This document shows positions 6,405-36,215 of a stretch of 36,215 nt of DNA, piece after piece. Location of the stretch: the NCBI RefSeq assembly GCF_004010195.1, contig NC_057719.1:30375853-30412067 (forward strand), written 5' to 3'. Under the pieces are notes generated by a model that was given only the letters and a program-made list of their open reading frames with translations, was not told where the DNA came from and did no database searches. A program made the translations under genes and the position numbers. Origin of the DNA: Chiloscyllium plagiosum. Taxonomy: Eukaryota. Position 1 is the first letter of the stretch. Each line of letters opens with the position of its first letter.

Positions 6405-6512
6405 AAGCCAGGGAAATTATAATGGGGAAACAAAGAAATAGCAGCAGAGTTGAAAACTTGCAGTGGTTCTGTCTGCACAAAAGAGGGCACAAATAGTTTT
6501 GCAGAAATGTTG
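6405..6512 (+). mobile_element. Short CR1-like ORF2 fragment
   Basis: gggaaattataatggggaaacaaagaaatagcagcagagttgaa...tctgtctgcacaaaagagg resembles the CR1 'EMA..LN.YFASVFT.E' region (compare MVEILNEYFASVVSEE at 18872). Confidence 0.5.
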
Positions 6513-8101
6513 TGGAGATCACAGCGGGTCAGAGAGCAAGCGAACGTTTCCAGTCAGCTGACTCTTCATCACAGCTGAAGTGAAATGTGGAGGGGATAAC
6601 ATTTATGTTATATTTTGGAGGGAGGCAAGATGGGGTGGGGATTGGGGATAGTGGGTGTCGTGTACCAGTTGGAGAAAGATGTTGATAGTTCAGATTAAGT
6701 GATTGGAATGGGAGAATGGCAGAACAATGCTGTGTCTGCTGCCAGACTTGAAAAGACAGACAGTCCCACTGGAATGGGGGAAGGGGAGAGAGGACATGAT
6801 GACAAGCTAAAAGAAAAGGAAGAAATCATTCACAATTTGAAGGTGTTGAACTCAATATTAAGTTCAGAACGCTGTAAAGTGCCTCATCTGAAGATGAGCT
6901 GTTGTTCGTCCAGTTCGCACTGTGATTCACTGGAACACTGCAGCATACCATGGACAGACATCTGGCATGCGAGCAGGACACTGTGTTAAAATGACCAGCT
7001 GCAGGAAGGTCAGGATCCTGCTTATGCATGGACTGGAGGTGTTCTGCAAAGCGGTCACGCAGTCTGCGTTTGGTTTCTCCAATGTAGAGTAGGCCACATT
7101 GGGTGCAGCGAATACAGTCCACAAGATTGGAGGAGGTACAGGTGAAATGCTTATTCACCATAGAAAGATTGTTTAAGTCCTTGCATGATGAACAGGGAGG
7201 AGGTAACCTTTTGTGGTTACATGGGAAGATGGCATGCGGAAGAGGGGGTGGTGTTGGTGGTTGTGGAATGGACTAGCGTGTTCCAATGGGAATAATTCCT
7301 ACGAAATGCAGATAGGGGAGTGAGGGGAAGATGAGTTTGGTGGTGGCCTTCTGCTGGAGTTGTCTGAAATTGCACAGAATGATCCTTTGAATGTGGAGGC
7401 TGGGGGTATGAAAAGTGAGGACAAGGAGTACACAATCATGCTGTTGTGAGTGATGGGAAGGGGTAAGGACAAAAGCACAGGTGGTAGGTCGAATGTGGTT
7501 GAGGACCCTGTCAACCAGTCATCAGGGAAGAAGCAAGTAATGTTAGCAGCGCTATTTTGGAAGGTGGCATCATCTGAACAGATGTGACATAGGTGAAGGA
7601 ACTGGGAGAATGGGATGGAGTCCTTGCAGGACATAGGGTGTAACAAACTGTCATGAAGGTAGCGATGGCAGTGGACAGTTTATTCCCTGAAATAGAGGCA
7701 GGGAGGTCAAGGAAAGGAAGCAAAGTGTCAGAAATGGACGATGTGGAAGTTATAGAGGATTGGAAATTGGAGGCAAAATGAATGAAGTTCTCAAGGTCCC
7801 AGCGGGAGCATGAAGCAATCATCGATGTACCAAAGAAAAAGTTGTGGAAGGGGCCAGTGTAAGACTGGAACAAATATCATTCCACATACCCCATAAAAAG
7901 GCAGGCCTAACTAGGACCCATGCAGGTGCCCATAGCCACTTCTTTGACTCGGCAGAAGTGAGTTGAATTACAGGAGAAATTGTTCAGTGAGAGAGCAAGT
8001 TCAGCCAGGCGGAGGAGAGTGGTGGGGGATGGGGATTGTTCGGCCTCTGGTCGAGGAAGAAGCCGAGAGCTCTCAGACCATCCTGGTGGGGAATGGAGGG
8101 A

Positions 8102-8319
8102 TAATTGGTTCTGATTTAACGCGATAGTTCCATTTTTGTGTGATCTTGCGTTATGTTAAAATTGTGGAAAAACCTTGCCATTTAAACTAATTGGGCTGGA
8201 ATTGCATTGCAGCCATACAGGTAAGGAAAGCTCGCATTCTAGAAATAACTGTCAAAATTTCTCAATCACATTAAAGCCACTTTGCATTGAAGAAACACAC
8301 ATCATAGCAGAACCGACTG
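8102..8319. mobile_element. pogo/Tigger-like MITE inserted in the Penelope RT
   Basis: Right end tagcagaaccgactg|TA and degenerate left end ..ggttctgatttaacgcg. Removing it rejoins the RT motif SLY-TSIPH. Same family as 22960-23493 (shared ccatttaaactaat.ggg..ggaat). Confidence 0.75.
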
Positions 8320-8759
8320 TATAGAGGGATTGGCCATTCATGGTGAACAGAAGTAGATAGGGCCAGGTAACTGGAAATTGTCAATATGGTGGAGGGCATC
8401 AAAAGAATCACGGATACAGGTGGGCAGGGTCTGGACATGTAGTGAGAGGATGGAGTCAATGTAAGAGGAAATGAGCTCAGAGGGGCAGGAACAGGCTGAT
8501 ACCAGGGCAGTCTGGTTGTGGATTTTTGGGAAGGAGGTAGAAGCGGGCTGTCTGAGGTTGGGAGACTACAAGGTTGAAGGCAATGGGAGGAAGATCTCCG
8601 GAGGTATTGAGGTCAGCGACAGTCCAGGCATATTCTGATCACTTAATCTGAACTATCAACATCTTGTCTCCACCAGAACCGTACACCCACTAGCCTCAAC
8701 CATAACCCCTCACTTCCCCAAACTATAACATAAATGCTATCCCCTCCACAGTTTACTTC

Positions 8760-8798
8760 AACTCTGATGAAGGGTCATCTAGACGTGAAACATTAGCT
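8760..8798 (+). ncRNA. Minimal hammerhead ribozyme core in Penelope terminal repeat (degenerate)
   Basis: CTGATGA (8764-8770) - AGGGTC atcta GACGT - GAAA (8787-8790) - CATT|AGCT. The inverted partner at ~6540-6576 keeps GAAACGTT but has GTGATGA. Confidence 0.6.
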
Positions 8799-9254
8799 TG
8801 CTGTCTCTCCATGGATGCTGTGTGATCTCCAGCATTTGTTGTTTTCAGTACCAATTCCAGCATCTGCAGTAATTTGCTGCTAGATTCAGGGGAGAGTAGT
8901 CTAGGACAGTTATGTATAAAAAAAAAGCTTTCAGTCACAACTATGTACCATCACTCAATTTTAAAACTTACATCTAATATTTGCCCTTAATTTTGTTTCC
9001 GTGTGTACATACCAGACATATTATTCTCATCCATATAAGATTTCTATTATCTCACTGCACATTATAAGTCACCTCCTTGTTTCTCTCAGCCACTCCCTGG
9101 ATGAGTCCTTTGTCCTAGTTTCATTCCTAATCCTGTCAAGAATGCATTTGCTACTTTTCTGTTCTGTTTACAACTTATTTTACAAAAGAAACACAACTGT
9201 AACTGTTTAATCCTTTCAAGGTCATTGCTGCACGTCCACAATGTTACCAGAAAG

Positions 9255-9969: not shown

Positions 9970-10165
9970 ATGCAGAGATGCCAATGTTGGACTGGGGCGG
10001 ACAAAGTTAAAAATCACACAACGCCAGGTTATAGTCTAACAGATTTTGTAAGATTTTGGAGCGTTGCTCCTTCACAGCTACCTATTGAAGAAGCAGCGCT
10101 CTGTAAGCTTCTACTTCTAAATAAGTAGTCCTGTTGGACTATAACCTGGTGTTGTATGATTTTTA
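9970..10165. mobile_element. ORF-less Penelope terminal-repeat mini-insertion (inverted arms) with 14-bp TSD
   Basis: gttaaaaatcacacaacgccaggttatagtctaacag is inverted against ctgttggactataacctggtgttgtatgatttttaac. TSD acctcttaattatg (9956-9969) / acctctgaattatg (10166-10179). Same repeat as the 3' end of the element at 24496-25710. Confidence 0.8.
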
Positions 10166-10469
10166 ACCTCTGAATTATGCAAGCAGACTGGATAGACTCT
10201 CTTAATCCCATCAGAGGTAGCAGCCAACATTTAGCACGTTTTAACCCATCTCCTTCAAATGAGCCCTTCAAACCTTTTTTTACTATAGATAAAACAATGT
10301 AACAACATAGTAGTGGAATTTTTTAAATGTAAGAACTGTGTATAAAGGGGCTCTTGTAAGAACTGTGTTTTGGGATTGTATTGCTCCTTAAAACTTGTAC
10401 TGTATTTGCTGAATAAAAGAGGCTATTTTCACCACTGACCAATTTTGGTCATTATTTGAACACAATCCC

Positions 10470-10800: not shown

Positions 10801-12230
10801 AGAAATTCTGACCCTTTTAAGATTTTTATATCAGCAGAGTGCAATTTTTAGATACAAATAGTTGACCTGTCTTCTTTATAATGTCCAAGCAATTGTTGTT
10901 GTAAAGTTATAGATTAATGTGACTGGTTTTCATCTCCTCATCTCATTTGCTCTCAGGAAACAGTGGTCATGAGGCCAACTGTATTTCATACTGTAATATA
11001 TGCTTCAAGAACCACGATTAAATGTGTTCAATGCCCCAGCCTCCACTATTCTGTGGGAAAGAAAAATCTAAAAAAGCTCCATATTTTTCACATTTGTCCC
11101 CTAGGTCTAGATTCACCTACAAGGTAACATCCTCTTAACATCTACTGTGCAATTCCTCTCATAATCTTCAAACTTTCAAATGATTGTTCCTCAATCTTCT
11201 AAACGTCAAAGAGTATGGGCCCAACTTGTGCAACACTTAGTCACGATACCATTTCATCACAAGAATATATTCGTAAACTTTTTCTTAACTATTTCCAATG
11301 CAAGTATTTCTGGTGCAATACACTTATTTAAACCGGGGGCAGATAGGAGATTTAACAATGTTAAAAATATGTTCAAATTGATTACACATGTTGGATATCA
11401 GAAACGTTAGTGAGGGGAAAAATACATTAAAAGGATTTATTTTTGTGGGGTCTTCTGACTGAATATTATTTGAAAAGCACCAGAAAAGACCAAGACATCA
11501 AGTCCACTGCTACCCATTGTGTTGCTCATCTACACAAATCCACTCTTTTAAAAAATGTTGAGCATAAAGTTCACCTAATCACATTTTTCAATGTCTCTGC
11601 AATCATTTCTTGAATATAAGTTCACAAACTAACGAGTAGAAAACTGTCAGAAAATAGTGAAGCAACTTGGAAAAATTGGTTACTCAGCACATATCAAATA
11701 CATTCACCTCACATAACATTCTGTCAAGCTCAAATCCCAACTTTTGGGAGAGACTGAGACATTTAAATAAAAACATTAAGACATTGAAATACATGAAACA
11801 TTTGACTGGATAAATATAATTGTTATTATGAAAATAAAATCTTGTGGTATTAAAAAAGGTTTGCTTGTAATTTTTGGAACCGAACTTTACAACATCAGAG
11901 AGAAAAAGATAGATGGAAAGTTTCATGAAGTTGTGAAAACTACCACGCCACTGTGTAGGTATTTGTGATTACATGATGCCAAGTTTATAAAAAATCATAG
12001 TAAGACAATTTGCATAAATTTGACAAATATAATAGGAAGTAAAACAATGTGACAAATGCCAAATTTCAAAGAAAATATACAATTATCACATACTGTGCAA
12101 AACACCAGATTAGGAAGTTCCTGTCATATAGGTAAAAACAAGGGCTGCAGATGCTGGAAACCAGATTCTAGATTAGAGTGGTGCTAGAAAAGCACAGCAG
12201 TTCAGGCAGCATTCGAGGAGCAAGAAAATC

Positions 12231-12258
12231 GACATTTCGGGCAAAAGCCCTTCATCAG
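12231..12258 (-). ncRNA. Minimal hammerhead ribozyme core (Penelope terminal repeat, left arm)
   Basis: Minus strand CTGATGA-A-GGGC-TTTT-GCCC-GAAA-TGTC: conserved core with a perfect 4-bp stem II and a GUC cleavage triplet; C>T in the stem III palindrome. Confidence 0.7.
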
Positions 12259-12315
12259 GAATAGAGGCAGAGTGCCTGCAGGGTGGAGAGATAAATGAGA
12301 GGAGGGTGGGGGTGG

Positions 12316-13263
12316 NNNNNNNNNNNNNNNNNNNNNNNNNNNNNNNNNNNNNNNNNNNNNNNNNNNNNNNNNNNNNNNNNNNNNNNNNNNNNNNNNNNNN
12401 NNNNNNNNNNNNNNNNNNNNNNNNNNNNNNNNNNNNNNNNNNNNNNNNNNNNNNNNNNNNNNNNNNNNNNNNNNNNNNNNNNNNNNNNNNNNNNNNNNNN
12501 NNNNNNNNNNNNNNNNNNNNNNNNNNNNNNNNNNNNNNNNNNNNNNNNNNNNNNNNNNNNNNNNNNNNNNNNNNNNNNNNNNNNNNNNNNNNNNNNNNNN
12601 NNNNNNNNNNNNNNNNNNNNNNNNNNNNNNNNNNNNNNNNNNNNNNNNNNNNNNNNNNNNNNNNNNNNNNNNNNNNNNNNNNNNNNNNNNNNNNNNNNNN
12701 NNNNNNNNNNNNNNNNNNNNNNNNNNNNNNNNNNNNNNNNNNNNNNNNNNNNNNNNNNNNNNNNNNNNNNNNNNNNNNNNNNNNNNNNNNNNNNNNNNNN
12801 NNNNNNNNNNNNNNNNNNNNNNNNNNNNNNNNNNNNNNNNNNNNNNNNNNNNNNNNNNNNNNNNNNNNNNNNNNNNNNNNNNNNNNNNNNNNNNNNNNNN
12901 NNNNNNNNNNNNNNNNNNNNNNNNNNNNNNNNNNNNNNNNNNNNNNNNNNNNNNNNNNNNNNNNNNNNNNNNNNNNNNNNNNNNNNNNNNNNNNNNNNNN
13001 NNNNNNNNNNNNNNNNNNNNNNNNNNNNNNNNNNNNNNNNNNNNNNNNNNNNNNNNNNNNNNNNNNNNNNNNNNNNNNNNNNNNNNNNNNNNNNNNNNNN
13101 NNNNNNNNNNNNNNNNNNNNNNNNNNNNNNNNNNNNNNNNNNNNNNNNNNNNNNNNNNNNNNNNNNNNNNNNNNNNNNNNNNNNNNNNNNNNNNNNNNNN
13201 NNNNNNNNNNNNNNNNNNNNNNNNNNNNNNNNNNNNNNNNNNNNNNNNNNNNNNNNNNNNNNN
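12316..13263. other. Assembly gap, 948 N
   Basis: Run of N inside one Penelope insertion whose TSD matches on both sides. Confidence 0.98.
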
Positions 13264-13954
13264 AAATCATCCGCCGACATTTCCGCCACCTCCAAACAGA
13301 CCCTACCACCAGGGATATATTTCCCTCCCCACCCCTTTCCGCCTTGCACAAAGACCATTCCCTCTGTGACTACCTGGTCAGGTCAATACCCTCCCAACAA
13401 CCCACCCTCCCGTCCTGGCACCTTCCCCTGCCACCTCAGGAATTGCAAAACTTATGCCCACACCTTCTCCCTCGCCTCCATCCAAGGCCCCAAAGGAGCC
13501 TTCCACATCCGAAGTTTTACCTGCACATCCACCAAGATCATTTATTGTATCCGTTGCTCCCGATGCAGTGTCCTCTACATTGGGGAGACTGGACGCATCT
13601 TCCACCTTGGAATACTTCAACCCCAAGGCATCAATGTGTACTTCACCAGTTTCCTCATTTCCCCTTCCCCCATCTCACTCCAGTTCCAAACTTCCAGCTC
13701 AGCACTGTCCCCATGACTTGTCCTACCTGCCTACCTTCCTTTCCACCTATCCACTCCACTCTCCTCTCTGACCTATCACCTTCAACCCCATCCCCATTCA
13801 CCCACTGTACTCTTTGCTGCCTTCCCCCACCCTCCTCTCTGACCTATCACCTCCATTCCCACCCCATTCACCTATTGTACTCAATGCAACTTTCTCCCCA
13901 CCCTCACCCTCCTCTCATTTATCTCTCCACCCTGCAGGCATTCTGCTTCTATTC

Positions 13955-13982
13955 CTGATGAAGGGCTTTTGCCCGAAACATC
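13955..13982 (+). ncRNA. Minimal hammerhead ribozyme core (Penelope terminal repeat, right arm)
   Basis: CTGATGA(13955-61)-A-GGGC-TTTT-GCCC-GAAA(13975-78)-CATC; G>A in the ACGT palindrome relative to the aaacgtc copy at 22581-22588. Confidence 0.7.
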
Positions 13983-14494
13983 AATTTTCCTGCTCTCGGT
14001 TGGTGCCTGAACTGCTGTGCTTTTCCAGCACCACTCTAATTTAGTTCCTGTCATATGGCATAACAATAAATAGAGATAGGAATTTAAGAATATTTTCAGG
14101 TTTCAATGAAGGAAATAGATGTACAATTGTTTGATAATTGTGAATCATTGATCTTAATTATACATGGTCATTTTATTTTGATTTACTCTTTCATACAGAA
14201 CCACACATGAAACAAATAGTTCCTCTAACTCTGTCAAAAGATGTACCACAAGCTACCTTATTACAGCACCACAGTCACGATCTAAATTTTAAAAAAAACC
14301 TTTTCACTGCACCATCACTCATCTCACATCTCAAAAATGTAAAGAACACAAAACTGCATCATATTTAACAGGAATTGTAAAACTTCTACAAAATAAGCAC
14401 TTATTTAGAGTGTAAAGAGAAGCATCATTACTACTACTCCCACCCCACCAATTAAGTGCAGATGAAGTTCATTTGAGCAAGTTGTCATTTATAT

Positions 14495-15421
14495 AAATAG
14501 GAGGTATCATTAGTAAATTTGCAGATGACATCAAAATTGATAGTGCAGTGGACAGAGAGTATAATGGAAGCTTGATCAAATGGGCAAACATTCCGAGGAG
14601 TGTCAGTTGGAGTTTAATTTAGTTAAGTGTGAGGTGTTGGCATTTTGGAAAGGCAAATCAGGACACAACTTATACACTTAATGGTAAGATCTTGGGGAGT
14701 GTTACTGAACAAAGAGACCTTGGGGTGTAGATTCATATAGTTCCTTGAAAGCAGAGTTGCAGGTAGACAAGGTAGTGCAGGTGGTATTTGGTATGCCTGC
14801 CTTTATTGGTCAGTGCACTGACTATAAGAGTTGGGAGGTCAAATGATGGCTGGAGAGGACATTTATTAGGCCATGTTTGGAATTCTGCATTCAATTCTGG
14901 TCTCCCTGCTATAGAAAGAATGTTGTGAAACTTGAAAGAGTTCAGAAAAGATTTACAAGGATGTTGCCAGGGCTGGAGGGTTTGACCTATAGGAAGAGGC
15001 TGAATAGACTGGGGTTAGTTTCCCTGGAGCATCGAAGATTGAGGGGTGACCTTATAGAAGTTTATGAAATCATGTGGGGCATGGATAGGATGAATATCCA
15101 AGGTCTTTTCCCCAGGATAGGGGAGTCCAAAACTAGAGGGCATAAGTTTAAGGTGAGAGGTGAAAGATTTAAAAGGGACCTAAGGGACAACATTTTCATG
15201 CAGATGGTGTTGCATGTATGGAATGAGCTGCCAGAGGTGGTGGAGGAGGAGGGTACAATTACAACATTTTAAAGGCATCCAGATGGGCATATGAATAGGA
15301 AGGATTTATAGGAATAGAAAATGCTGGCAAATGGAACTAGATTAATTTAGAATATCTGGTCACCGTGGACAAGTTGGACCGAAGGGTCTGTTACATGCTG
15401 TACATCTTTATGATTCTATGA
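14495..15421 (+). mobile_element. CR1 (HER1-like) LINE, 5'-truncated
   Basis: ISKFADDIKI RT motif at ~14507-14540; ORF 14877-15272 EFCIQFWSPCYRK...LERVQKRFTRMLPGL...RRLRGDLIEVY...TRGHKFK...WNELP; 3' tail ggaccgaagggtctgtt...tgattctatga. Confidence 0.92.
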
Positions 15422-17161: not shown

Positions 17162-20100
17162 CAAAGAACAAAGAAAGTTACAGCACAGGAACAGGCCTTT
17201 CAGGCCTCCAAGCCTGCACCGATCCTGATCCTCTATCTAAATCTGTTGCCTATTTTCTAAAGCTATGTATCCATCTGCTCCCTGCCCTTTCACGTATCTG
17301 TCTAGATACATCTTAAATGATGTTATCATGCCCACCTCTACCATCTCTGCTGGCAATGCGTTCCAGGCACCCAACACCCACTGCGTAAAGAATTTTCCAT
17401 GTGTATCTTCCTTAAACTTTGCCCCTCTCACCTTGAACTCATGACCCCTAGTAATTGAGTCCCCCACTCTTGGAAAAAAGCTTCTTCGTCTCCACCCTGT
17501 CTATACCTCTCATGATTTTGTAGACCTCAGTCAGATTTCCCCCTCAACCTTCATCTTTCTAATGAAAATACTTCTAATCTACTCAACCTCACTTCATAGC
17601 TAGCGCCCTCCATACCTGGCAATATCCTGGTGAACCTCCTCTGCGCCTTCTCCAAAGCATCCACATCCTTTTGGTAATGTAATGACCAGAACTGTATGCA
17701 GTATTCCAAATGTGACCAAACCAAAGTCGTATACTAATGTAACATGACTTGCCAACTCTTGTACTCATTACCCCGTGCAATGAAGCATGGCATATACCTT
17801 CTTGACCACTCTATCGAACAGTGTTGCCACCTTCAGGGTACAATGGACCTGAACACCCAGATCTTTCTGTACATCAATTTTTTCCAGAACCTTTCCATTT
17901 ACCATATAGTTCGCTCTAGAATTGGATCTTCCAAAATACATCACCTTGCATTTTCCTGGATTGAATTCCATCTGTCATTTCTCTGCCCAACTCTCCCATC
18001 TATCTATATTCTGCTGCACTATCTGACAGTACCCTTCACTATCTGCTACTCCACCAATCTTAGCATCATCTGCAAACTTGCTAATCAGACCACTTATACC
18101 TTCCTCCAGATCATTTATGTTTATCACAAACAACAGAGGTTCCAACACAGATGCCTGTGGATCACCACTGGTCACAATTCTCCATTTTGAGAAACTCCCT
18201 TCCACTACTACACTCTGTCTCCTGCAGCCCAACCAGTAGTCTATCCATCTAGCTAGTACACCCTGGACTCCATGTGACTGCACTTTTCCATCAGCCTAAC
18301 ATGGGGAACCTTATCAAATGCCATACTCAGTCCATGTACATGACATCTACAGCCCATCCCTCATCAATCAAACTTTGTAACTTCCTCGAAGAATTCTACC
18401 GTTGGTAAGACACCATCTTCCGTGCACAAAACTGATCACTGATAAGCCCAATTTCTTCCAAATGTGGATAGATTCTATCCCTTAGTATGTTCTCTAGCAG
18501 CTTCCCTACCACTGTTGTCAGGCTCACTTGTCTATAATTACCTGGATCATTCCTACCACCCTTCTTAAACAAGGGGACAATATTAGCAATTCTGCAGTCC
18601 TCTGGGACCTCACCCATGTTCAAGGATGCTGCAAAGATATCTGTTAAAACCCCAGCTATTTCCTCTCTCACTTTACTCAGTAACCCAGGATAGATCCCAT
18701 CCAGACCTGGGGACTTGTCCATCTTAATGTATTTTAGAATACCCAACACCTCCTCCCTCCTCTTTCTAACTTGACCTAGAGTAATCAAACATCTATCCCT
18801 AACCTTAACATATGTCATGTCCCTCTCCTCAGAGACTACTGATGCAAAGTACTCATTAAGAATCTCAACCATTTTCTCTTACTCCACACATAACTTTCCT
18901 CCTTTGTCCTTGAGTGGGCCAACCCTTTCTCTAGTTACCTCCAGCTCCTTATATATGAATAAAAGGCTTTGGGATTTTCCTTAGCCCTGTTTGCTAAAGA
19001 TATTTCATGACCCCTTTTAGCCCTCTTAATTCCTCATTTCAGATTGGTCCTACTTCTTGAATATTCTTCCAAAGCTTTGTCTGTTTTCAGTTGCCTAGAC
19101 CTTAGGTATACTTCCTTTTTTATCTTAACTAGTCTCACAATTTCACCCGTCATCTATGGTTCCCTAATCTTGCTATTTCTATCCCTCATTTTCACAGAGA
19201 CATGTCTGTCCTTCACTCGAAATCAACCTCTCTTTAAAAGCCTCCCAACATATCAAATGTGGATTTACCTTCAAAGAGCTGCTCCCAATTCACACTCACT
19301 AGCTCCTGTCAAATATTGCTATAGTTGGCCTTCCCTCAATTTAGGACCACTCTCATCTTTGTCCATGAATATTCTAAAATGTACAAAATTGTGGTCACTA
19401 TTCCCAAAGTAATCCCCTACCGAAACTTCAACCACCTTGCTGGGCTCACTCCCTATCACCAGGCCCAGTATGGCCCCTTCCCGAGTTGGACTATTTATAT
19501 ACTGCTCTGGGATATTTAGTTGCCAATCATGCCCTTCCCTCAACCAAGTCTCATACATCATATTTGTAGTACTAATCTAAGCCCTGAGATCACCTGCTTT
19601 ACCTACACTTCTCACATTAATACCAATGCGCCTCAGATGACCTGTCCTTTGCATTCGTCTGCCTACTCTTCCCTTTAGTCACGCTGATTTTATTATCTAG
19701 TTCCTTACAGGCTTTCGTTCCTACCTCCTTGCAGTCCACTAACCTCATTTGGTATCCATCCCCCTGCCACATTAGTATAAACCCTCCCCAACAGCATTAG
19801 CAAAAGCAACCCCAGGACATTGGTTCCAGTGCAGCCCAGATATATACCATCCAATTTGTAATATTCCCACCTCCCCCAGAACTGGTCCCAATGACCCAAA
19901 ACTCTGAACCCCTCCCTCCTGCACCATCTCTCAAGCCACATATTCATTCTGTCTATTTTGTCATTTCTTCTCTGACTAGCACGTGGCACTGGTGGCAATC
20001 TGAGATTACTACCTCGGAGGTCCTACTTTTTAACTTGGCTCCTAACTCACTAAATTCTGCCTGTAGGACCTCATCATGTTTATTACCTATATCATTGGTA

Positions 20101-20556
20101 CCTATATGCACCACAACAACTCTCCATTCACCTTCCCCCTTTAGAATATTCTGCAGCCAATCTGAGACATCCCTGACCCATGCACCTGGGAGGCAACATA
20201 CCATTCTGGAGTCTCATTTTCAACCACAGAACTATCTACTCCCCTTACAATGGAATTCCCTAGGACTATAGCCCTTTCACTCTTTTTTCTACCCTTGTAT
20301 ACAGCAGAGTCAGCCACAGTGCCATGAATCTGGCTACTGCTGCCTTCCCCTGGTGTGTCATCTCCACCAACAATATCCAAAACAGTATACCTGTTTTGGA
20401 GGGAGATGACTACAAAGGACACCTGCACTGCTTTCCTGCTCTTTCTCTGCCTTTTGTTCACCCAATCCCTTTCTCCCTCAGCAATCCTAATCTGCTGTGT
20501 AACCAATTCATGAAACATGCTATCCATGACCTCCTCAGCATCACAGATGCTCCAAA
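17162..20556 (-). mobile_element. CR1 LINE with esterase (SGNH/GDSL) ORF1 and internally deleted ORF2, inserted in the Gypsy integrase
   Basis: ORF1 AIVLGNSIVRGVD / CCLPGAWVRD / VVVHIGTNDIG (19705-20527). APE remnants ETWL, PTREGAILGLV, GNSDHN (19319-19561). RT KSPGLDGIYP, DPGNYRQVSLT, ISKFADDAKIGG, MEFNPGKCKVMYFG (17589-18872). 3' tail with ttctttg repeats at 17162-17175. Confidence 0.93.
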
Positions 20557-21292
20557 GTCAATGGCTAAATCACGTCAAATGAAATTTGGCTTTCTGCCAT
20601 TTCAATTCCAATTTTGTCACACATACCTGTTACTACTTCTGGTTTCAATAGATTATTTTGGCTACTGGAGGAATAGTTTGTGGATGCTGTGATGTTAGTG
20701 TTGATACTGAAGTAATTTCCATACCTTCTGTAAGTATATTTCTTCACTTGAGGAATGCATTATATACAAGTGTGCGACTTGCTCAATTTTTTAATGATTC
20801 CTTTGGCAATTTTGATTACCACCTCATGTTTTCCAATTGACTGGGGATAGTGTAGAGATGCTATGTAGTGTCAAATTTCCCAATCATTTATAATGACCTC
20901 ACTGAAGTTGACTGGCCCACCTTCCAGTAGTCAGAATAGTAGTCTTTTGTGACAAGATAATCAGTTCCTGAAAACATAACCATGATTTGTCTGGGATACT
21001 ATATGTCATTAGAGGCTTTCCAGCTTGCTTACCTTGGTACTCTTATTTTAAAACCATACTAACTGCTGTGGTCCTTGATTTTGTTACTCATTTGTCCAGT
21101 AGAGCAAGTCTTTACTTCCTCAGTCTTGACTAAATTCACTGGTGGCTCGTACATTCACACTTTAGCATCTCTTTTCTCAATTTCTTTGGGATACTGACTA
21201 TGTCCTCTACATGATAGGCTGTCTTGGGCTGTCAATTAGTGCTTGATGCCATTCCTCTTATATAGTGACAAATTTATTATCAATGCTCTCAG

Positions 21293-22055
21293 CAGAAGAG
21301 GAAAAACAGCTAATGCTCCATTTAGGCACACTACAGGCTCAAAATCTCAACACGAAATTCAGTAACTTCAGGAACTGACCAGTTTATGTCTATCCTCAGT
21401 TTTTCTCACATTCTCATCCCCCTCAACCCATCAGTGTCATGTTTGCACATTATGTACTTTACATTTTGTAACAAGAATTAATTTTCTCCATTTCACATCA
21501 TAGTGGGCGGCACGGTGGCACAGTGGTTAGCACTGCTGCCTCACAGCGCCAGAGACCCGGGTTCAATACCTGCCTCAGGCGACTGACTGTGTGGAGTTTG
21601 CACGTTCTCCCCGTGTCTGCGTGGGTTTCCTCTGGGTGCTCCGGTTTCCTCCCACAGTCCAAAGATGTGCAGGTCAGGTGAATTGGCCATGCTAAATTGC
21701 CCGTAGTGTTAGGTAAGGGGTAAATGTAAATGTAGGGGTAGGGGTATGGGTGGGTTGCGCTTCGGCGGGGCGGTGTGGACTTGTTGGGCCGAAGGGCCTG
21801 TTTCCACATTGTAAGTAATCTAATCTAATCTAGTTGATACCCTTTTTAATATTTATTTTCCTTTCGCCACTATTAATACCTTTCTTTTTTCACTGGGCCC
21901 CTATACCATCTACCCTCTTAGTCCTCCTTTGCCAAAATTAGTTTTATTTTTCTACTTTCTAATAATCTTTGCTTTTGAAGTCATTCTAGACTTGAAATAT
22001 TAACTGTTTCCCTATCCACAGACGCTATCAGACCTGCTGAGTTGCTACAGCATTG
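21293..22055 (+). mobile_element. Penelope-like 3' fragment (GIY-YIG C-terminus + terminal repeat) inserted in Gypsy pol
   Basis: EKQLMLHLGTLQAQNLNTKFSNF (compare IFHLGILQPQGINVYFTSF at ~13600). Decayed terminal repeat tgaagtcattctagacttgaaatattaac...cagacctgctgag at 21976-22041. 16-bp TSD ttatcaatgctctcag (21277-21292) / ttattgacactctcag (22056-22071). Confidence 0.7.
21505..21832 (+). mobile_element. HE1-type tRNA-derived V-SINE, full length and young
   Basis: Pol III A box tggcacagtgg (21516-21526) and B box ggttcaatacc (21560-21570); V-domain ctgtgtggagtttgcacgttctccccgtgtctgcgtgggtttcctc...ccggtttcctcccacagtccaaaga; CR1-like tail gggccgaagggcctgtttcc and (taatc)3 end; CpGs retained. Confidence 0.92.
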
Positions 22056-22508
22056 TTATTGACACTCTCAGACCTTCCTCATTGCTACTTCTTACAAACT
22101 TAGAGATTTGCATTTTGTTGGATAGTTAGATTAATGAGTTAGATGCTTGTCTTATATTCAATGTTTCTGCTGCATTGATGATTTTCAGACCATGATGAGC
22201 TGTTGCTTTACATTATGAAATTTTTGAGATTTTACTCTGTTGAAGCAGTCTGTATTTTCTTTATTGACAGGGCTGCAATGTACAAGTGCTTCCCTTGCTT
22301 ACACCATATCCAGATGGTATCTCTGTGATCAGAATAAATTCTTTGAAGTTGCTTTGGAGCAGATAGTAGGAGCATGAGGAAAATGCTTTCTATTGGCTTG
22401 TGGGACTTTGTGCCTTCCAAGTAGGTATGGAAGGAAATGCTCACAAGCAGACAATGGCCAGACACGCTTTCTCAATTTGAGCATATTGTCACGCTGTTTA
22501 TGTTATTG

Positions 22509-22653
22509 GGAGTAAGTGAGGACTACAAATGGAGATTAGAGTCGAGCCCTTCATTAGGAATGAATGAGGACTTATGCCCAAAACGTCGATTCTTCTGCTC
22601 CTTGGATGCTGCCTGACCTGCTGTGCTTTTCCAGCAACACACTCTCGCCACCA
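22509..22653. mobile_element. ORF-less Penelope terminal-repeat mini-insertion with perfect 12-bp TSD
   Basis: TSD tttatgttattg at 22497-22508 and 22654-22665. The interior is a truncated inverted arm (gcccttcattaggaat) joined to a forward arm (gcccaaaacgtcgatt...ctgctgtgcttttccagca) homologous to 13955-14036. Confidence 0.8.
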
Positions 22654-22959
22654 TTTATGTTATTGCCCTGGATGCAAATGTAACTGTCTGTCTTTGCTAC
22701 AATAAGGCTGCTCCAAGTCCTGTTTCATTGGCACCACACAGCAGAGTGACTTCATGGTTTACATCACAGCATTTCAACACTGGTGTAGCTGTCACAAGAT
22801 CATTTTAGTGAACACTGCTTCTAGTTCTGTGCCCCAAAACCACTGTAAATCTTCGACAGAGAAGTTGGTGTAATGGCTCATGCTCTGGCAATAAATTAGA
22901 CAAAGATGCTACAAAGCAGCTGTCAAATCTAGCAAAACATTGCACTGCTTTCACATCTA

Positions 22960-24495: not shown

Positions 24496-25710
24496 ATGAG
24501 ACACTGGATGCGACCAATAGTGTACCCTTCGTTGTCAGTACTTCCCAGGAGTGGAGAAACCATGCCATGTTCTTTGCAGCCTGCAACATATTATCGATGA
24601 GGATGAGCACCTCGCCAACACCTTCCCTATGTCTCCACTTCTCCCCTTTAAACAACCAAATCTTAATCAGGCCATTGTTCACAGCAAACTGCCCAGCTTT
24701 CAGGACATTGACCACAACACTATACAACCCTGTCACGGCAACCACTGCAAGACGTGTCAGAGTGTCGACATTGACACCACCCACCATGAATGCATCAGGT
24801 ACTCATGTGACTCTCCCAACATTGTCTACCTAATATGTTGCAGGCAAGGATTCTCGAAGGCATGGTACATTGGCGAGATCAAGCAGACGCTATGACAATG
24901 GATAAACGGATACCATGCAATAATTGCCAGACAGGAATGCTTTCTCCCAGTCAGGGAGCATTTCAGCAGTTAAGTACATTCGGCCTCAGATCTTAAGGTG
25001 ACCGTCTTCCAAGGTGGACTTCGGGATACACAACAGAGTGGCCAAGCAGAGGCTGGTATCCAAGTTTGATATCCATGAGCATGATTCTCTTGAGTTTGAT
25101 ACTCAACCGGGACCTGGGGTTCATATCACACCACAGGTGACCCTGTTACATTATATACACACACACACACACAGACAGTCACACTCATGTACAAACTCTA
25201 GTGCGCGCACACACACACGCGCGCACACACACGCACACGGTCTATGGGGTGAATTTGCATTTGCAGAATTATATTTGCAGATACATTCGATTTTGCTCAA
25301 AAAGCACACAATCTGCTGGCAGTCAATCCATGTGATAGTTTATAAATTTCTACTTTGGAAATAGAACCAGTCTGACTCAAGATTGGAATACAACAGGCTC
25401 TAACTTCACACCTTTAATGCATTGCCTGAGCTGAGATGTCACTTTCTTTTATAAAAGTTTAAGTTATCTCGAGAATTTGACTTGAAAGTAGTTCTGGGAT
25501 TTATATATTAATCAATTGAAGCCAGCAACCCATTCTAAAAGATGAAAGACTTAACAGCAATCTACATTAGTTCAATATATTGTATTAGTTGCATGACACT
25601 ATGACTTTTTGCTAGAAATTCTGTCTTATGACCTTGCCCCACTAGCTACCTGACAAAGGAGTAGCACTCTAAACACTAGTACTTCCAAATAAACCTGTTG
25701 GACTATAACT
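24496..25710 (+). mobile_element. Penelope-like element 3' part (Cys-rich linker, GIY-YIG, long terminal repeat)
   Basis: ORF 24551-24895 QPCHGNHCKTC...YSCDSPNIVYLICCRQGFSKAWYIGEIKQTL; ends with a decayed hammerhead-like cctgacaaaggagtagcactctaaa and aataaacctgttggactataac. Confidence 0.87.
25157..25237. repeat. Imperfect (CA)n/(CG)n microsatellite inside the Penelope element
   Basis: acacacacacacacacacagacag...gcgcgcacacacacacgcgcgcacacacacgcacac. Confidence 0.9.
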
Positions 25711-30384: not shown

Positions 30385-31487
30385 GGAGCTAGAGAACTTG
30401 GGGAAATGAACAGTGACATCTTGAAAAGGTGGAGCTGGAGGTTTTAAAACACAAAAGGTAGATAAATCCCCAGGACCTGATTAGGTGTTTCCCAGAATTT
30501 TGTGGGAAGCTAAGGAAGAGATTGTTGGGTCCCTTGCTGAGATATTTGCATTATCGACAGCCACAGGTGAGGTGGTGGAAGACTGAAAGGTTGGCTAATG
30601 TGGTGCCATTATTTAAGAAAGGCTGTAAGGAAAATAAAGAGAATTGTAGATGGGTGAGCTTAACATCAGTGCTAGGGAAGCTGTTGGAGGGGACTCTGAG
30701 GGACAGGATTTACATGCATTTGGAATGGCAAAGACGGATTTGGGATAGTCAACAAGGAAATCATATCGCATTAATATGATGTAGCTGTTTGAAAAAGTGA
30801 CAAAGATTGAAGGAGGCAGAGCAGTAGTTGTCGTCTATGTGGTCTTCAAGGCACTCAACAAGGTTTCATGTGGTAGATTGGTTAGTAAGATTGGATTATG
30901 TGGAATCCAGGGAAAGCTTGCCAATTGGATACAAAATTGGCTCAAAAGTAGGAAACAGAAGGTGATGATAGAGGGTTGCTTTTCGGATTGGAGGCCTGTG
31001 TCCAGACATGTGCCATAAGGATTGGTGTTGGGTCCACTGTTTTTTGTAATTTACATAAATGATTTGGATGTGAATATATGAGGTATGGATAGTAAGTTTA
31101 TAGATGACACCAAAATTGGTGGTGCAATGGACCGTGAAGAACAGTACCTCACAGTACAACGGGACCTTGGTCAGATAGGCCAATGGGCTGAGGAGTGGCA
31201 GATGGAATTTAATTTAAATAAATGTGAGATCATGCATTTTGGTAAGGCAAATCAGACAGGACTTATACACTTAGTGATAAGGTCTTGGAGAGAGTGTTGC
31301 CGAACAAAGAAACCTAGGAGTGCAAGAGCATAATTCCTTGAAAGCAGAGTCGCAGGTAGATGGGAGGTGAAGATGTCATTTAGGAGTTGGGATGTCATAT
31401 TGTGGCTGTACAGGACATTGGTTAGGCCACTTTTGGAATACTCCGTTCAATTCTGTGCTGTGCGCTGTAACTCTAACTCTATGACAT
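30385..31487 (+). mobile_element. CR1 LINE RT fragment in the last PTPN21 intron
   Basis: DKSPGPD, LANVVPLFKKGCK..N.R.VSLTSVLGKLLE, NWIQNWL, SKFIDDTKIGG, WQMEFNLNKCEIMHFG; tail gtaactctaactctatga. Confidence 0.9.
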
Positions 31488-31539
31488 ACTGGGCGCACTG
31501 TGTAAGGTTTGAGCAGAAAACTAGCCCGAAACCTCTATG

Positions 31540-31905
31540 AGGTCACCTCTCGGCCTCCGACACTCCAGGGAAAATAACCCGAGCCTATTCAGACTCTCCC
31601 TATAGGTCCAAAACCTTCAATCCCGACAACATACTTGTAAATCTTTTCTGCACCCTCTCAAGTTTAATAACATCTTTCCTATAGCAGCGAGACCAGAATT
31701 GAACAGAGTATTCCAAAAGTGGTCTAACCAATGTCCTGTACAGCTACAATATGACATCCCAAATTCTATAATCCATACAATGACGAATAAGGACAGTGTA
31801 CCAAATGCCTTCTTCACTACCCTGTCTACTTGTAACTCCAACCTGCACCCCTCGGTCTCAGCAACACTCCCCAGGACTGTACCATTAAGTGTATAAGTCC
31901 TGCCT
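31540..31905 (-). mobile_element. CR1 LINE fragment, opposite orientation
   Basis: Minus-strand GRTYTLNGTVLGSVAE...LQVDRVVKKAFGTL..., contains a near-identical inverted copy of 31387-31455. Confidence 0.88.
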
Positions 31906-32329
31906 TGAGGGAAAAAAAAGTTGTTTCTCATGTGAAATCATGCAAGCTCTTGAAGATAGAATCTGCACAATCCTCAGCGTTGCGAGGTTTTATTTTCAAA
32001 TAGTCCTATGAAGCAACTTGAACATTTTATCATGTTAAAGCTGAACAAAATAAGTGATTTTTTTGTGTTTAATAGGTGCATTTAAAATACAAATATAGGA
32101 GAATTGGATAAAAAAAATGCAACCATAATGGGGAGATGGGAGGAGATTTACACCTACAGTATAAAAAGGTGAACTCAATGAGCAAAAATGAGAGCTAATA
32201 AGGGAACAGGCCATATTATACATGGACAACAGGGTGAGCAACGATCATGAATTAGTTAATTTAATATTCATTGAATGATATTGACTTAAATCAACATAAC
32301 AATTTAATCGGATGTGCTGTTTCTTAAAA

Positions 32330-32880: not shown

Positions 32881-33052
32881 TGCAGAATCACAAATTGTGC
32901 CTTCAGATTTATAAATTGTAAATTACTTAAGTGATGGGAGACCGGGAGAAAGCAAGTAAACACATATCTGTTGTTTTATCAGTTGTGCAGAGGTTGCTTG
33001 AATTTATCAGAATCATATGACATAGCAAGTTTAACAAATAGGATAATCTTAC

Positions 33053-33213
33053 TGCATTGTGCTCCAGGCAGCCAATCATAATTTCTGATAAAATCACAAC
33101 ACCAGTCCTTCCTACACCAGCGCTGCAGTGTATAAGTAAAGGCATGTCCGGATTTTTACTGTCTGCTGTACTATTGGTATGACGACGCACTGACTCAATT
33201 TCATCCAAATATG
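33053..33213 (-). CDS. PTPN21: PTPN21 catalytic-motif exon
   Basis: Acceptor gcttttacag|CA and donor GCA|gtaaga. 161 nt (S)[56 protein letters not shown] signature HCSAGVGR at 33107-33130. Confidence 0.96.
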
Positions 33214-33354
33214 CTGTAAAAGCAATGAGAAATTTAAAAAGGGGTCATTATTAAAGAAACATTTTTTGCAATACAGCCAAAATGCCTTAGCATAAACATT
33301 TTGTTTTAAACTTAAAATGACAAGTGCTGCCAATCAGAATTCAATAAAACTCAC

Positions 33355-33589
33355 ATCGGAATCCTTTGATATCTTCTGGACAGCCATTTTCTGGCCAATC
33401 TGTATACTGCAAGTGCCACACTGTTCTTTCTTGCCCATTCAACAGATGTTTAATTTTTAACCCGGTAGTTGCATAACAACCAGAGTCTGTTCGAAATCTT
33501 GTAGTAATTTTGAATCTTCCATACGTGACAGAGTTATTCCTGGAGCCTAATCGAGGCCAATACCGAAAACTTTTCTCTCTCCCTCCCTC
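33355..33589 (-). CDS. PTPN21: PTPN21 PTP-domain exon with WPE loop
   Basis: Acceptor cattacag|GAG and donor T|gtgagt. 235 nt [78 protein letters not shown], near-identical to human PTPN21; WPE (not WPD) distinguishes it from PTPN14. Confidence 0.96.
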
Positions 33590-33824
33590 CTGTAATGTTA
33601 TTACAACAAAGAGCTTGATTAACACTAAACATAAAATTCTATAATTGGAATGCATACTCCAAGTAATTGTATTGTGAACAAAACTTTAAAGTCACTTTAC
33701 AGAATATAATTTTCTTAAACATGTGAAGTACAAACTGGTGAATAAAAAGACGTATAATTTTCCTAAATATCTTTGAGAATTAAATGAGATTACCATGTAC
33801 TCTCTTTCCTCAATTGAAAAACAA

Positions 33825-34200
33825 TACCCCTCCATGTGGAGCAACATTGGGAGGAAGCACAGAGGGTGGTAAGGGCACAAAATGTACTCTGGGCGGGGGA
33901 TTTCAATGTCCACAACCAAGAGTTGCTCAGCAGCAGCATTTCTGACTGAGCTGGTCAGGTCCAAAGGACATAGCTGCTAGATTGCATCTACAGCAGGTGG
34001 TGAGAGAATCAACAAGAGGGAAAAACATATTTGACCACATCCTCAATAATATGGCAGCTGCAGGTACATCTCTCTAGTACAGTATCAGTAAGGGTGACCA
34101 CCAAGATAGCTCTTGCGGAAACAACCTTCCACCTTCACACTGAAAACATCCTCTATCATGCTTGTGTAGTACTATCAGCAAACTAAAAAAGGGACAGACT
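33825..34200 (+). mobile_element. LINE APE endonuclease fragment
   Basis: VLWAGDFNVHNQE at ~33884-33920, TRGKNIFDHIL at ~34013-34045, and a GDH (SDH-like) motif at ~34093. Confidence 0.7.
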
Positions 34201-34220
34201 ACAAAGCGACATTAGCGATT

Positions 34221-35600
34221 TTGAGAAGAATTGTAGCTCTAGTTGAGGTTCTGGATGTAGGTTTGCTTGCTGAGCTGGAAGGTTCAGTTTCAGATGCTTT
34301 GTTACCATACTAGGTAACGTCAGTAAGCCTCCGGATGAAGCACTGGTGGTATGGCCTGCTTTTTATTCATGCGTTTAGGTTTCCTTAAGTTGGTGACGTT
34401 ACTTCCTGTTCTTTTTCTCAGGGGTGGTAAATGGGATCCAAGTCAATGTGTTTGTTGATAAGAGTTCCGGTTGGAGTGCCATGCTTCTAGGAATTCTCGT
34501 GCCTATCTTGGTTTGGCTTGTCCAAGGATGCATGCATTGTCCCAGTCAAAGTGGTGCCCTTCCTCATCCATATGTAAGGATACTAGTGAGAGTGGGTCAT
34601 GTCTTATTGTGTCTAGTTGATGTTCATATATCCAGGTAGCTAGTTTTCTGCCTGTTTATCCAACGTAATGTTTGTTACAGTTCTTGCAAGGTATTTTGTA
34701 AATGATATTAGTTTTGCTTGTTGTCTGTATAGGGTCTTTCAAGTTCATTAGCTGCTGTTTTAGCATGTTGGTGGGTTTGTGGGCTACCACGATGCCAAGA
34801 GGTCTGGCAGTCATTTCAGAAATCTGTGGTGTAGGGGAGAGTTGCTAGGGTTTCTGGATTGTTTTGTCTGCTTGTTTGGGTTTGTTGTTGAGCAATTGGT
34901 GGACTGTATTCATTGGTTACCCGTTCTTTTTGAATACACTGTAAAGGTGATTTTCCTCTGCTTTGCGTAGTTCCTCTGCGCTGCAGTGTGTGGTGACTCA
35001 TTGAAATAATGCTCTAATGTAGCTTCGCTTGTGAATATTGGGATGATTACTTCTGTAATTCAGTATTTGGTCCGTATGTGTTCTTTTCCTGCAGACGCTG
35101 GTTTCAAGTTCCCCATTGGCTGTTTGCTTTACAGCCACATCTAGGAATGGCAGTTTATTGTTGTTTTCCTCTTCTTTAGTAAATTTTATGCCAGTAAGGG
35201 TATTATTAATGGTCTTGAAGGTTTCCTCTAATTTGTTTTGTTTAGTGATGTCACCACATAGCGGACCCAAAGTTTGGGTTGGATGGTTGGCAGACCGGTT
35301 TGTTAGAGTCTCTGCATTACTGCCTCTGCTGAGAGCTCTGATATCAGAGATGTCATGGGTGTTCCGATGGTTGGTCTGTAGGTTTTGTTGTTGAAGGTGA
35401 AGTGAGTGGTAAAAGGCATAGGTCCACTAGCTTGACGAAATTTTCCTTGCTGAAGTAGTTTGGGGTATTTTGTGCATGCGTCTTTGATTCTTCTAAGAGT
35501 GTAGTCAGTGTTTCCTTGGCCAGGTTAATGTTGATGGATATGAACAGAGCTGTTACGTCAAAAGGAGACCATTATTTCATCCTCTTCTATCTTGGTGTCT
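34221..35600 (-). mobile_element. Penelope-like element (Poseidon-type), left arm: RT, GIY-YIG and terminal repeat
   Basis: Minus strand IEEDEIMVSF/DVTALFISIN, LWVRYV.., KFTKEEENNNKLPFLDV, RKRTHTDQILNYRSNHP; GIY-YIG NIIYKIPCKNCNKHYVG*TGRKLATWIYEH...EFLEAWHS; terminal repeat 34221-34400 with a decayed hammerhead-like core. Confidence 0.9.
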
Positions 35601-35619
35601 TTGATTGCCTTCAGAAGTT

Positions 35620-36215
35620 CTTGGGTTGGATGACACCCTTTTCATCACTAAACAAAACAAATTAGAGGAAACCTTCAAGTCTATCAATAATACCCTTACT
35701 GGCATAAAATTCACTAAAGAGGAGGAAAACAACAACAAACTGCCATTCCTAGATGTGGCAGTAAAGCTAACAGCCAATGGGGAACTTGAAACCAGCGTCT
35801 GCAGGAAAAGAACACATACGGACCAAATACTGAATTACAGAAGTAATCATCCCAATATTCACAAGCGAAGCTACATTAGAACATTATTACAATGAGCCAC
35901 CACACACTGCAGCGCAGAGGAACTACGCAAAGCAGAGGAAAATTACCTTTACAGTGTATTCAAAAAGAACGGGTAACCAATGAAAACAGTCCACCAATTG
36001 CTCAGCAACAAACCCAAACAAGCAGACAAAACACATCCAGAAACCCTAGCAACTCTCCCCTACACCACAGATCTTGGAAATGACTGCCAGACCTCTTGGC
36101 ATCATGGTAGCCCACAAACCCACCAACACACTAAAACTAATGAACTATACCTGATGTTACCTAGTATGGGATAATGAATTTGAAAGACCCTATACAGACA
36201 ACAAGCAAAACTAAT
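35620..36215 (+). mobile_element. Penelope-like element, inverted right arm (continues past the window end)
   Basis: 35643-36215 is the reverse complement of ~34706-35250 at high identity; ORF 35605-35895 DDTLFITKQNKLEETFKSINN...LPFLDV...SNHP. Confidence 0.9.

Follow-up and report, generated by a model that had tools for sequence, protein, structure and literature searches.

A putative fossil minimal hammerhead ribozyme in the pseudo-LTR of an abundant Neptune-type Penelope-like element of a shark

The segment 13951-13986 on the forward strand of the window, i.e., of the whole stretch of 36,215 nucleotides analysed here, is almost certainly a minimal type I hammerhead motif (min-HHR) located in the 3' pseudo-LTR (pLTR) of a broken Penelope-like element (PLE). 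Taking structure, letters and mechanism together, we consider it reasonably likely that this motif is the fossil of a min-HHR of an abundant Neptune-type PLE, whose RNA would have been cut as a dimer with the aid of a protein. Such motifs have been known since 2014, when min-HHRs were described in the pLTRs of metazoan PLEs (Cervera and De la Pena, 2014; available parts of PMC4209133), and the motif in the window is a further, decayed example of them. It is composed of the following parts, with a second copy in the inverted arm of the same insertion:

13951..13986, forward strand: minimal type I hammerhead motif, copy 1 (focal), from structural scan, folding and letters
13951-13954 and 13983-13986, forward strand: helix I strands of copy 1
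13955..13962, forward strand: CUGAUGA core box (C3-A9) and the single unpaired A ahead of helix II
13963..13974, forward strand: helix II with four G-C pairs, a 4-nt loop and the closing pair G10.1-C11.1 (folding, pair probabilities about 1.0)
13975..13982, forward strand: GAAA box (G12-A15.1), positions 15.2/16.2 and U16.1-C17; ACAU in the focal copy, ACGU in the family majority
12227..12262, reverse strand: minimal hammerhead motif, copy 2

In the standard hammerhead numbering, the scheme cited in PMC4209133, which we take to place C3 at 13955, G12 at 13975 and C17 at 13982, the cut site of copy 1 is predicted between 13982 and 13983. The letters CTGATGA-A-GGGC-TTTT-GCCC-GAAA were found at 13955-13978 on the forward strand, followed by CATC (copy 1), and at 12258-12235 on the reverse strand, followed by TGTC (copy 2), just as the earlier note had recorded them; its third string, aaaacgtcga, starts at 22580 and not at 22581. 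The motif thus contains the core, the bulge, G10.1-C11.1, helix II and the NUH site. The focal copy has decayed at 13980 (16.2) and at 13983 (1.1), and because of the latter change (G1.1>A) it has 0 contiguous helix I pairs, while copy 2 carries a single defect, C15.2>U; the ACGU palindrome is accordingly broken in each of the two copies individually. Helix I of the family reads C-G, U-A, U.U and A-U, with two contiguous pairs in copy 2 and in the majority, which agrees with the very short helix described before and identifies its mismatch as U.U. Compared with the majority of the three copies in the window, the focal copy differs solely at 13980 and 13983, where it has A instead of G; the majority letters form a self-complementary ACGU together with a GUC site.

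A structural scan allowing up to two defects found three sites in the window (13955 and 8764 on the forward strand, 12258 on the reverse strand) versus a mean of 0.1 and a maximum of 1 in 20 resampled windows. With up to three defects, six sites were found versus a mean of 3.2 in the resampled windows, and a plain pattern matched four times in the window versus 1.27 expected, with at least four matches in 3 of 100 shuffles. No hammerhead family of the Rfam covariance models matched the window, or either arm alone, at E values up to 10. The RNAMotif descriptor given in the available part of PMC4209133 (Fig. S7), in which the minimum of three contiguous helix I pairs is a search setting and not a definition of the class, had no match in the window either, and with this minimum lowered to two it returned one match, at 12258 on the reverse strand. 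A longer helix I seen in the centroid fold (13934-13938 with 13989-13993) was not accepted because both of its sides vary in the family (13934, 13935 and 13989).

A single insertion accounts for both copy 1 and copy 2, each lying in one of its inverted arms, and the third string belongs to another. The components of both are as follows:

13898..14042, forward strand: right arm (pseudo-LTR) of the insertion
12170..12315, reverse strand: left (inverted) arm, running into an assembly gap
12130..12169, reverse strand: tail of about 40 nt, at the left end only
12116..12129, forward strand: target-site duplication, left copy, 14 bp
14043..14056, forward strand: target-site duplication, right copy, 14 bp
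12316..13263, no strand: assembly gap of 948 N, covering the inversion junction
13266..13694, forward strand: remnant of the C-terminus of the element protein (Zn-finger-like linker and GIY-YIG endonuclease)
22509..22653, no strand: separate 145-nt inverted insertion (copy 3) of a sister subfamily with the loop TTAT

The duplications measure 14 bp at the first insertion and 12 bp at copy 3 (22497-22508 and 22654-22665), whereas none of 1,981 random pairs exceeded 10. The left and right arms differ at 13 of 146 columns, and the first insertion is therefore not recent. An inverted pLTR structure with a tail of 30-40 bp at one end has been described for PLE insertions, Neptune/Nematis-type elements included, in the accessible text of PMC8557442, and the same arrangement was found here. 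The motif lies in the pLTR, on the coding strand and 3' of the endonuclease remnant, so that its original description as a minimal type I hammerhead in a Penelope-like terminal repeat holds for both its anatomy and its position. Upstream of the ribozyme, in the 3' region of the element, a unit of about 71 nt is duplicated at 13756-13898.

In copy 3, neither strand contains a complete ribozyme. Its forward arm (from about 22568) is devoid of the CUGAUGA box because it starts within helix II, and carries G12>A; its reverse arm (22561-22547), which abuts the tail directly, retains the first box, with G5>A, but lacks GAAA. The proposal that the ancestral core can be rebuilt from three copies is thus sound with respect to the letters, with the qualification that these derive from two insertions, not three. 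As for the origin of the focal copy, its intact core boxes at 13955-13978 could be taken to mean that it is a ribozyme or regulatory RNA adopted by the host, or else a chance match to the pattern. However, it is one member of a very large family, and the positions needed for helices I and III are the very ones that have undergone CpG decay, as would be expected if the copy were neutral, while a chance match is ruled out by the target duplications and the structural scan; we thus regard an origin of either kind as highly improbable.

In the coding remnant, the reading frame changes near 13390, and about 58 codons are missing after 13602. Its frame at 13266-13602 was 79-86% identical to residues 263-375 of a Chiloscyllium punctatum protein (P0001), which has reverse transcriptase (RT) motifs, a CX4CxxC linker and a GIY-YIG-like motif; the RT part is not visible in the focal element copy. 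In the Pfam GIY-YIG search, P0001 scored 21.7 bits, below the cut-off of 22.6, and the protein piece of the window gave no match. A linker of the CX2-5CxxC type was present in 76 of 93 long relatives, which are annotated with RT and GIY-YIG, and its last C is replaced by Y in the copy of the window. An exhaustive protein search retrieved no further full-length close relative, the best matches being 47-48% identical. In the accessible text of PMC8557442, Neptune and Nematis, unlike Penelope/Poseidon, are distinguished by a CX2-5CxxC linker ahead of the endonuclease, and on account of this Zn-finger-like linker the element is assigned, from its sequence, to the Neptune/Nematis-type EN+ PLEs and not to Penelope/Poseidon in the narrow sense.

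An ATG at 14000 (A in 90-96% of the depth) begins a frame that runs across both the conserved downstream block and the tail, spanning 14000-14042 and the tail side (12212-12130, reverse strand), with one stop in the left arm. The ORF of the element may start here, or the frame may lie upstream of it, and the 27-residue peptide that it encodes had no match to the N-termini among 98 proteins. An ORF start at the ATG of the ribozyme core was rejected, the frame closing after about 17 codons (read by eye).

To characterize the family, reads from 4 of the 24 listed runs, namely three DNA runs from three organisms and one RNA run, were aligned to 13860-14070 at 80% likeness. The contigs matching this region numbered 40,685, 49,360 and 38,649 in the three DNA runs, contig depth not being equivalent to copy number. 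G was the commonest base at 13980 (66, 50 and 65% in the DNA runs, 75% in the RNA reads) and also at 13983 (78, 64 and 80%, and 86%, respectively), and CpG decay at 13974 and 13975 was symmetric (13-17%). These observations, independent of the three copies, bear out the claim that an ancestral ACGU stem and GUC site had been lost from the window's copies by CpG decay. Consensuses of the loose ends revealed a second subfamily, which has the loop TTAT and other upstream letters, meets the shared motif at 13951 and, like the first, keeps the U.U in helix I.

Loose ends just before 13951, the outer edge of helix I, were present on 845-920 contigs per DNA run, strand-switch joints recur there, and the depth climbs about 9- to 13-fold between bins 13940 and 13964. 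The boundary at 13951 is partly that between the subfamilies, and it may also mean that the start of many copies lies a little upstream of the ribozyme.

With the exception of G12, which lies in a CpG, no core purine showed an A>G, A>C, G>A or G>C change of at least 4% in the three DNA runs, and few flank purines did either. In run X1, the visible non-CpG polymorphic sites numbered 0 among 36 motif positions and 11 among 100 flank positions (p 0.04, or 0.18 when a hidden loop variant is counted), the block 14004-14035 was as deep as the core, and the core was not visibly better conserved, 36 of the 76 variant rows being hidden in these comparisons. A search of metagenome, genome and viral contigs for exact matches to a 32-nt motif from the downstream side gave 0 loci. 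Better evidence for a selected architecture comes from a second PLE remnant in the window, described below, whose two arms combine the same core with other helices.

The conservation of the downstream block bears on whether the motif is a noncatalytic descendant of a hammerhead, kept as a protein-binding or template signal or carried along beside the region where reverse transcription starts. Such a vestigial state would also be consistent with the dominance of a decoy fold (see below), with a helix I weaker than those of all six published 2-bp cases (available parts of PMC4209133), and with the spread of Naiad PLEs without canonical hammerheads (PMC8557442, in the text accessible). On the other hand, two subfamilies with different upstream sequences both keep the motif from 13951 on and differ in loop 2, the same core, combined with different helices, is retained by an unrelated PLE family of the window, and the core purines other than G12 are unchanged at the 4% level, as are most of the flank purines. 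We thus judge a vestigial state to be quite unlikely, and prefer a motif that was once catalytic in its family.

By analogy with known PLE hammerheads, one RNA of an active tandem element would have carried two motifs, whose ACGU palindromes would pair into a shared helix III and permit the cut after GUC. Folding suggests that the naked RNA would instead favour an inactive hairpin, in which U4-G8 is paired with 15.2-1.1: in the majority monomer, the pairs of this decoy hairpin had probabilities of 0.59-0.98, and those of helix I 0.06 or less. In the dimer hammerhead model, the majority scored -10.3 kcal/mol, copy 2 -6.0 and the focal copy +5.4, and the best two-strand folds about -26 kcal/mol (majority best cofold, -25.9), all being nearest-neighbour energies that omit the tertiary contacts of the core. 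Given this preference of the naked RNA for the inactive hairpin, cutting was probably slow and aided by the element's own protein, on the model of the anole PAc element. The read depth further suggests that cutting would not have been required before reverse transcription, because most inserted copies span the site.

Helix I of the family would be too weak to assemble without help, and yet it appears fixed in two subfamilies and three organisms. A more far-reaching interpretation, namely an obligately protein-gated hammerhead in which the element's own protein flips a switch between the inactive hairpin and the dimer fold, is in our estimation doubtful; were it true, a family missed by 3-bp descriptors would represent many thousands of uncounted motifs in shark genomes. 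The focal copy itself is probably dead, because its palindrome and first helix I pair have been lost and its only neighbour motif lies on the other strand. With the arms on opposite strands, a read-through RNA would contain one sense motif and its complement, and hence no dimer in cis.

The earlier note had further proposed that this family processed its RNA by self-cleavage, for which the reads provided no support. In a poly(A) single-cell RNA run, a type of library that constitutes a weak test, no pile-up of ends was observed anywhere among 1,432 reads, and the direction with the greater depth showed no step across the site (422.9, 421.5 and 423.8), the other being nearly flat (236.9, 220.4 and 217.8). 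The RNA reads lie in both directions and 99% of them continue into dissimilar sequence, as they would if the copies formed part of host transcripts. The DNA depths just upstream and downstream of the cut were approximately equal (4.90M vs 5.09M, 20.0M vs 18.6M and 8.65M vs 8.80M), which suggests, contig depth being distinct from copy number, that the templates were mostly uncut, or cut and religated; if cleaved 3' fragments were the usual template, copies would start at 13983.

Religation is the essence of a model proposed in the discussion of PMC4209133, as far as its available parts go, in which both motifs of a tandem transcript cleave, ligation closes the unit-length RNA to a circle, and every copy regains an intact motif when the joint is reverse transcribed. 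The copies spanning the cut fit a religated circle as well as uncut RNA, and the palindrome is retained in the family majority. However, none of the 1,432 RNA reads ended at the site (in a poly(A) library poorly suited to detecting this), core mutants of PAc insert like the wild type in vitro (accessible text of PMC11167929), and so weak a helix I should disfavour ligation. Such a cut-and-circle route seems unlikely to us, and we continue to favour protein-aided cutting of a dimer that would not be obligatory before reverse transcription. The very large size of the family makes the matter countable, in that the numbers of insertions starting at the cut site and running through it bear on uncut linear versus cut templates.

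In the RNA run X21, the core-breaking change A15.1>C at 13978 occurred in 95 of 418 reads in one direction, in 1 of 215 in the other and in 0.2% of the DNA depth. This excess probably reflects a single, strongly expressed host transcript that contains a copy; persistence of copies unable to cleave would be indistinguishable from it here.

Several other elements were observed in the window. The second PLE remnant (6500-8885), which is unrelated to the focal PLE and has the same hammerhead core with different helices, contains RT and GIY-YIG at about 6870-8620 (reverse strand) and inverted arms; its motifs, from 8764 (forward) and 6572 (reverse), have a 5-bp helix II and a GUU-type site, both arms being decayed. 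A third, heavily decayed hammerhead-like end was seen by eye at 25649-25680 (forward), after a GIY-YIG remnant at 24569-25000, and likewise at 10006-10167 (both strands) in a short inverted element; it fails the structural scan at three defects. A fourth PLE-like element (34200-36215) has 391-nt inverted arms, a decayed hammerhead-like end with a shortened first box near 34323-34290 (reverse strand; by eye, failing the scan), and, within the opposite arm near 36150, a piece of similar letters at 36147-36168 (forward). These other PLE remnants showed no target duplication beyond what chance would give (5-7 bp). Tyrosine phosphatase exons occur at 33344-33685 and 32927-33244 (reverse strand), with the best match to PTPN21 (E 3e-50) and one to PTPN14 (4e-44). 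Other retroelement-like remnants lie at 14526-15400, 17237-20560, 30462-31937 and 21498-21830, and are presumably CR1-type LINE pieces and a short SINE-like repeat.

A literature search that covered few subscription papers retrieved no paper on this shark family. Work by Lunse, Weinberg and Breaker may have covered short-helix variants or sharks before. The role of PLE ribozymes in transposition is described as unsettled (PMC8557442 and PMC11167929, in the parts accessible). The PAc hammerhead of the Anolis carolinensis Poseidon element cleaves only with protein, and is dispensable for insertion in vitro (Frangieh et al., 2024; accessible text of PMC11167929). Like the insertion in the window, PAc has its pLTR motif upstream of the two insertion ends with a tail of 30-40 nt between them, and, as in the RNA run of the shark family, no RNA-seq read ends were found at its cut site. 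PAc, whose ORF starts at helix II, differs, however, in belonging to another clade that is devoid of the Zn-finger-like linker, and its cleavage has been demonstrated, whereas that of the shark family is predicted from sequence. The non-LTR retrozymes, found in one chondrichthyan genome, likewise contain a type I hammerhead related to those of PLE pLTRs, but they form head-to-tail tandem arrays, whereas those of the window occur as inverted or scattered copies, one of them linked to a PLE coding remnant; of 9 Xenopus dimer elements assayed in vitro, 8 failed to cleave (available part of 10.64898/2026.07.22.740005).

The fundamental properties of the motif were in good agreement with those of the metazoan PLE min-HHRs in the available parts of PMC4209133, of which the monomer is inactive and the dimer and trimer have low activity. 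The CUGANGA box, the single unpaired nucleotide and G10.1-C11.1 are found in copies 1 and 2, the helix II of 4 bp and loop of 4 nt fall within the published 3-7 bp and 3-10 nt, and GAAA-NN-UH with a palindromic 15.2/16.2 is matched by the family majority. Of the type I helix I with at least two pairs, the majority and copy 2 have two and the focal copy 0, so that the motif fits the consensus except for the 3-bp helix I of the descriptor. Among the 56 motifs in those parts of PMC4209133, 0 are from cartilaginous fish, and the nearest rows are those of Acropora digitifera Neptune and Nematostella vectensis (2), which share the CUGANGA box, the one unpaired base, G10.1-C11.1, the 4-bp helix II, the 4-nt loop, GAAA followed by the CG palindrome and UC, and the pLTR position after the endonuclease, but have three helix I pairs where the shark family has two pairs, U.U and one A-U. 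The suggestion of an unusually reduced variant was overstated, since Fig. S3 shows a helix I of 2 bp for 6 of the 56 motifs, including those of Culex quinquefasciatus, Drosophila virilis/rhopaloa/kikkawai and Oikopleura dioica; in the Culex row, moreover, CG is followed directly by UC, and helix III bears no insert. All six consist of two G-C pairs, whereas the shark family has the weaker C-G and U-A. Judged by its letters, helix I of the shark family is thus placed at the weak end of the known range, and descriptors demanding 3 bp of helix I miss this family.
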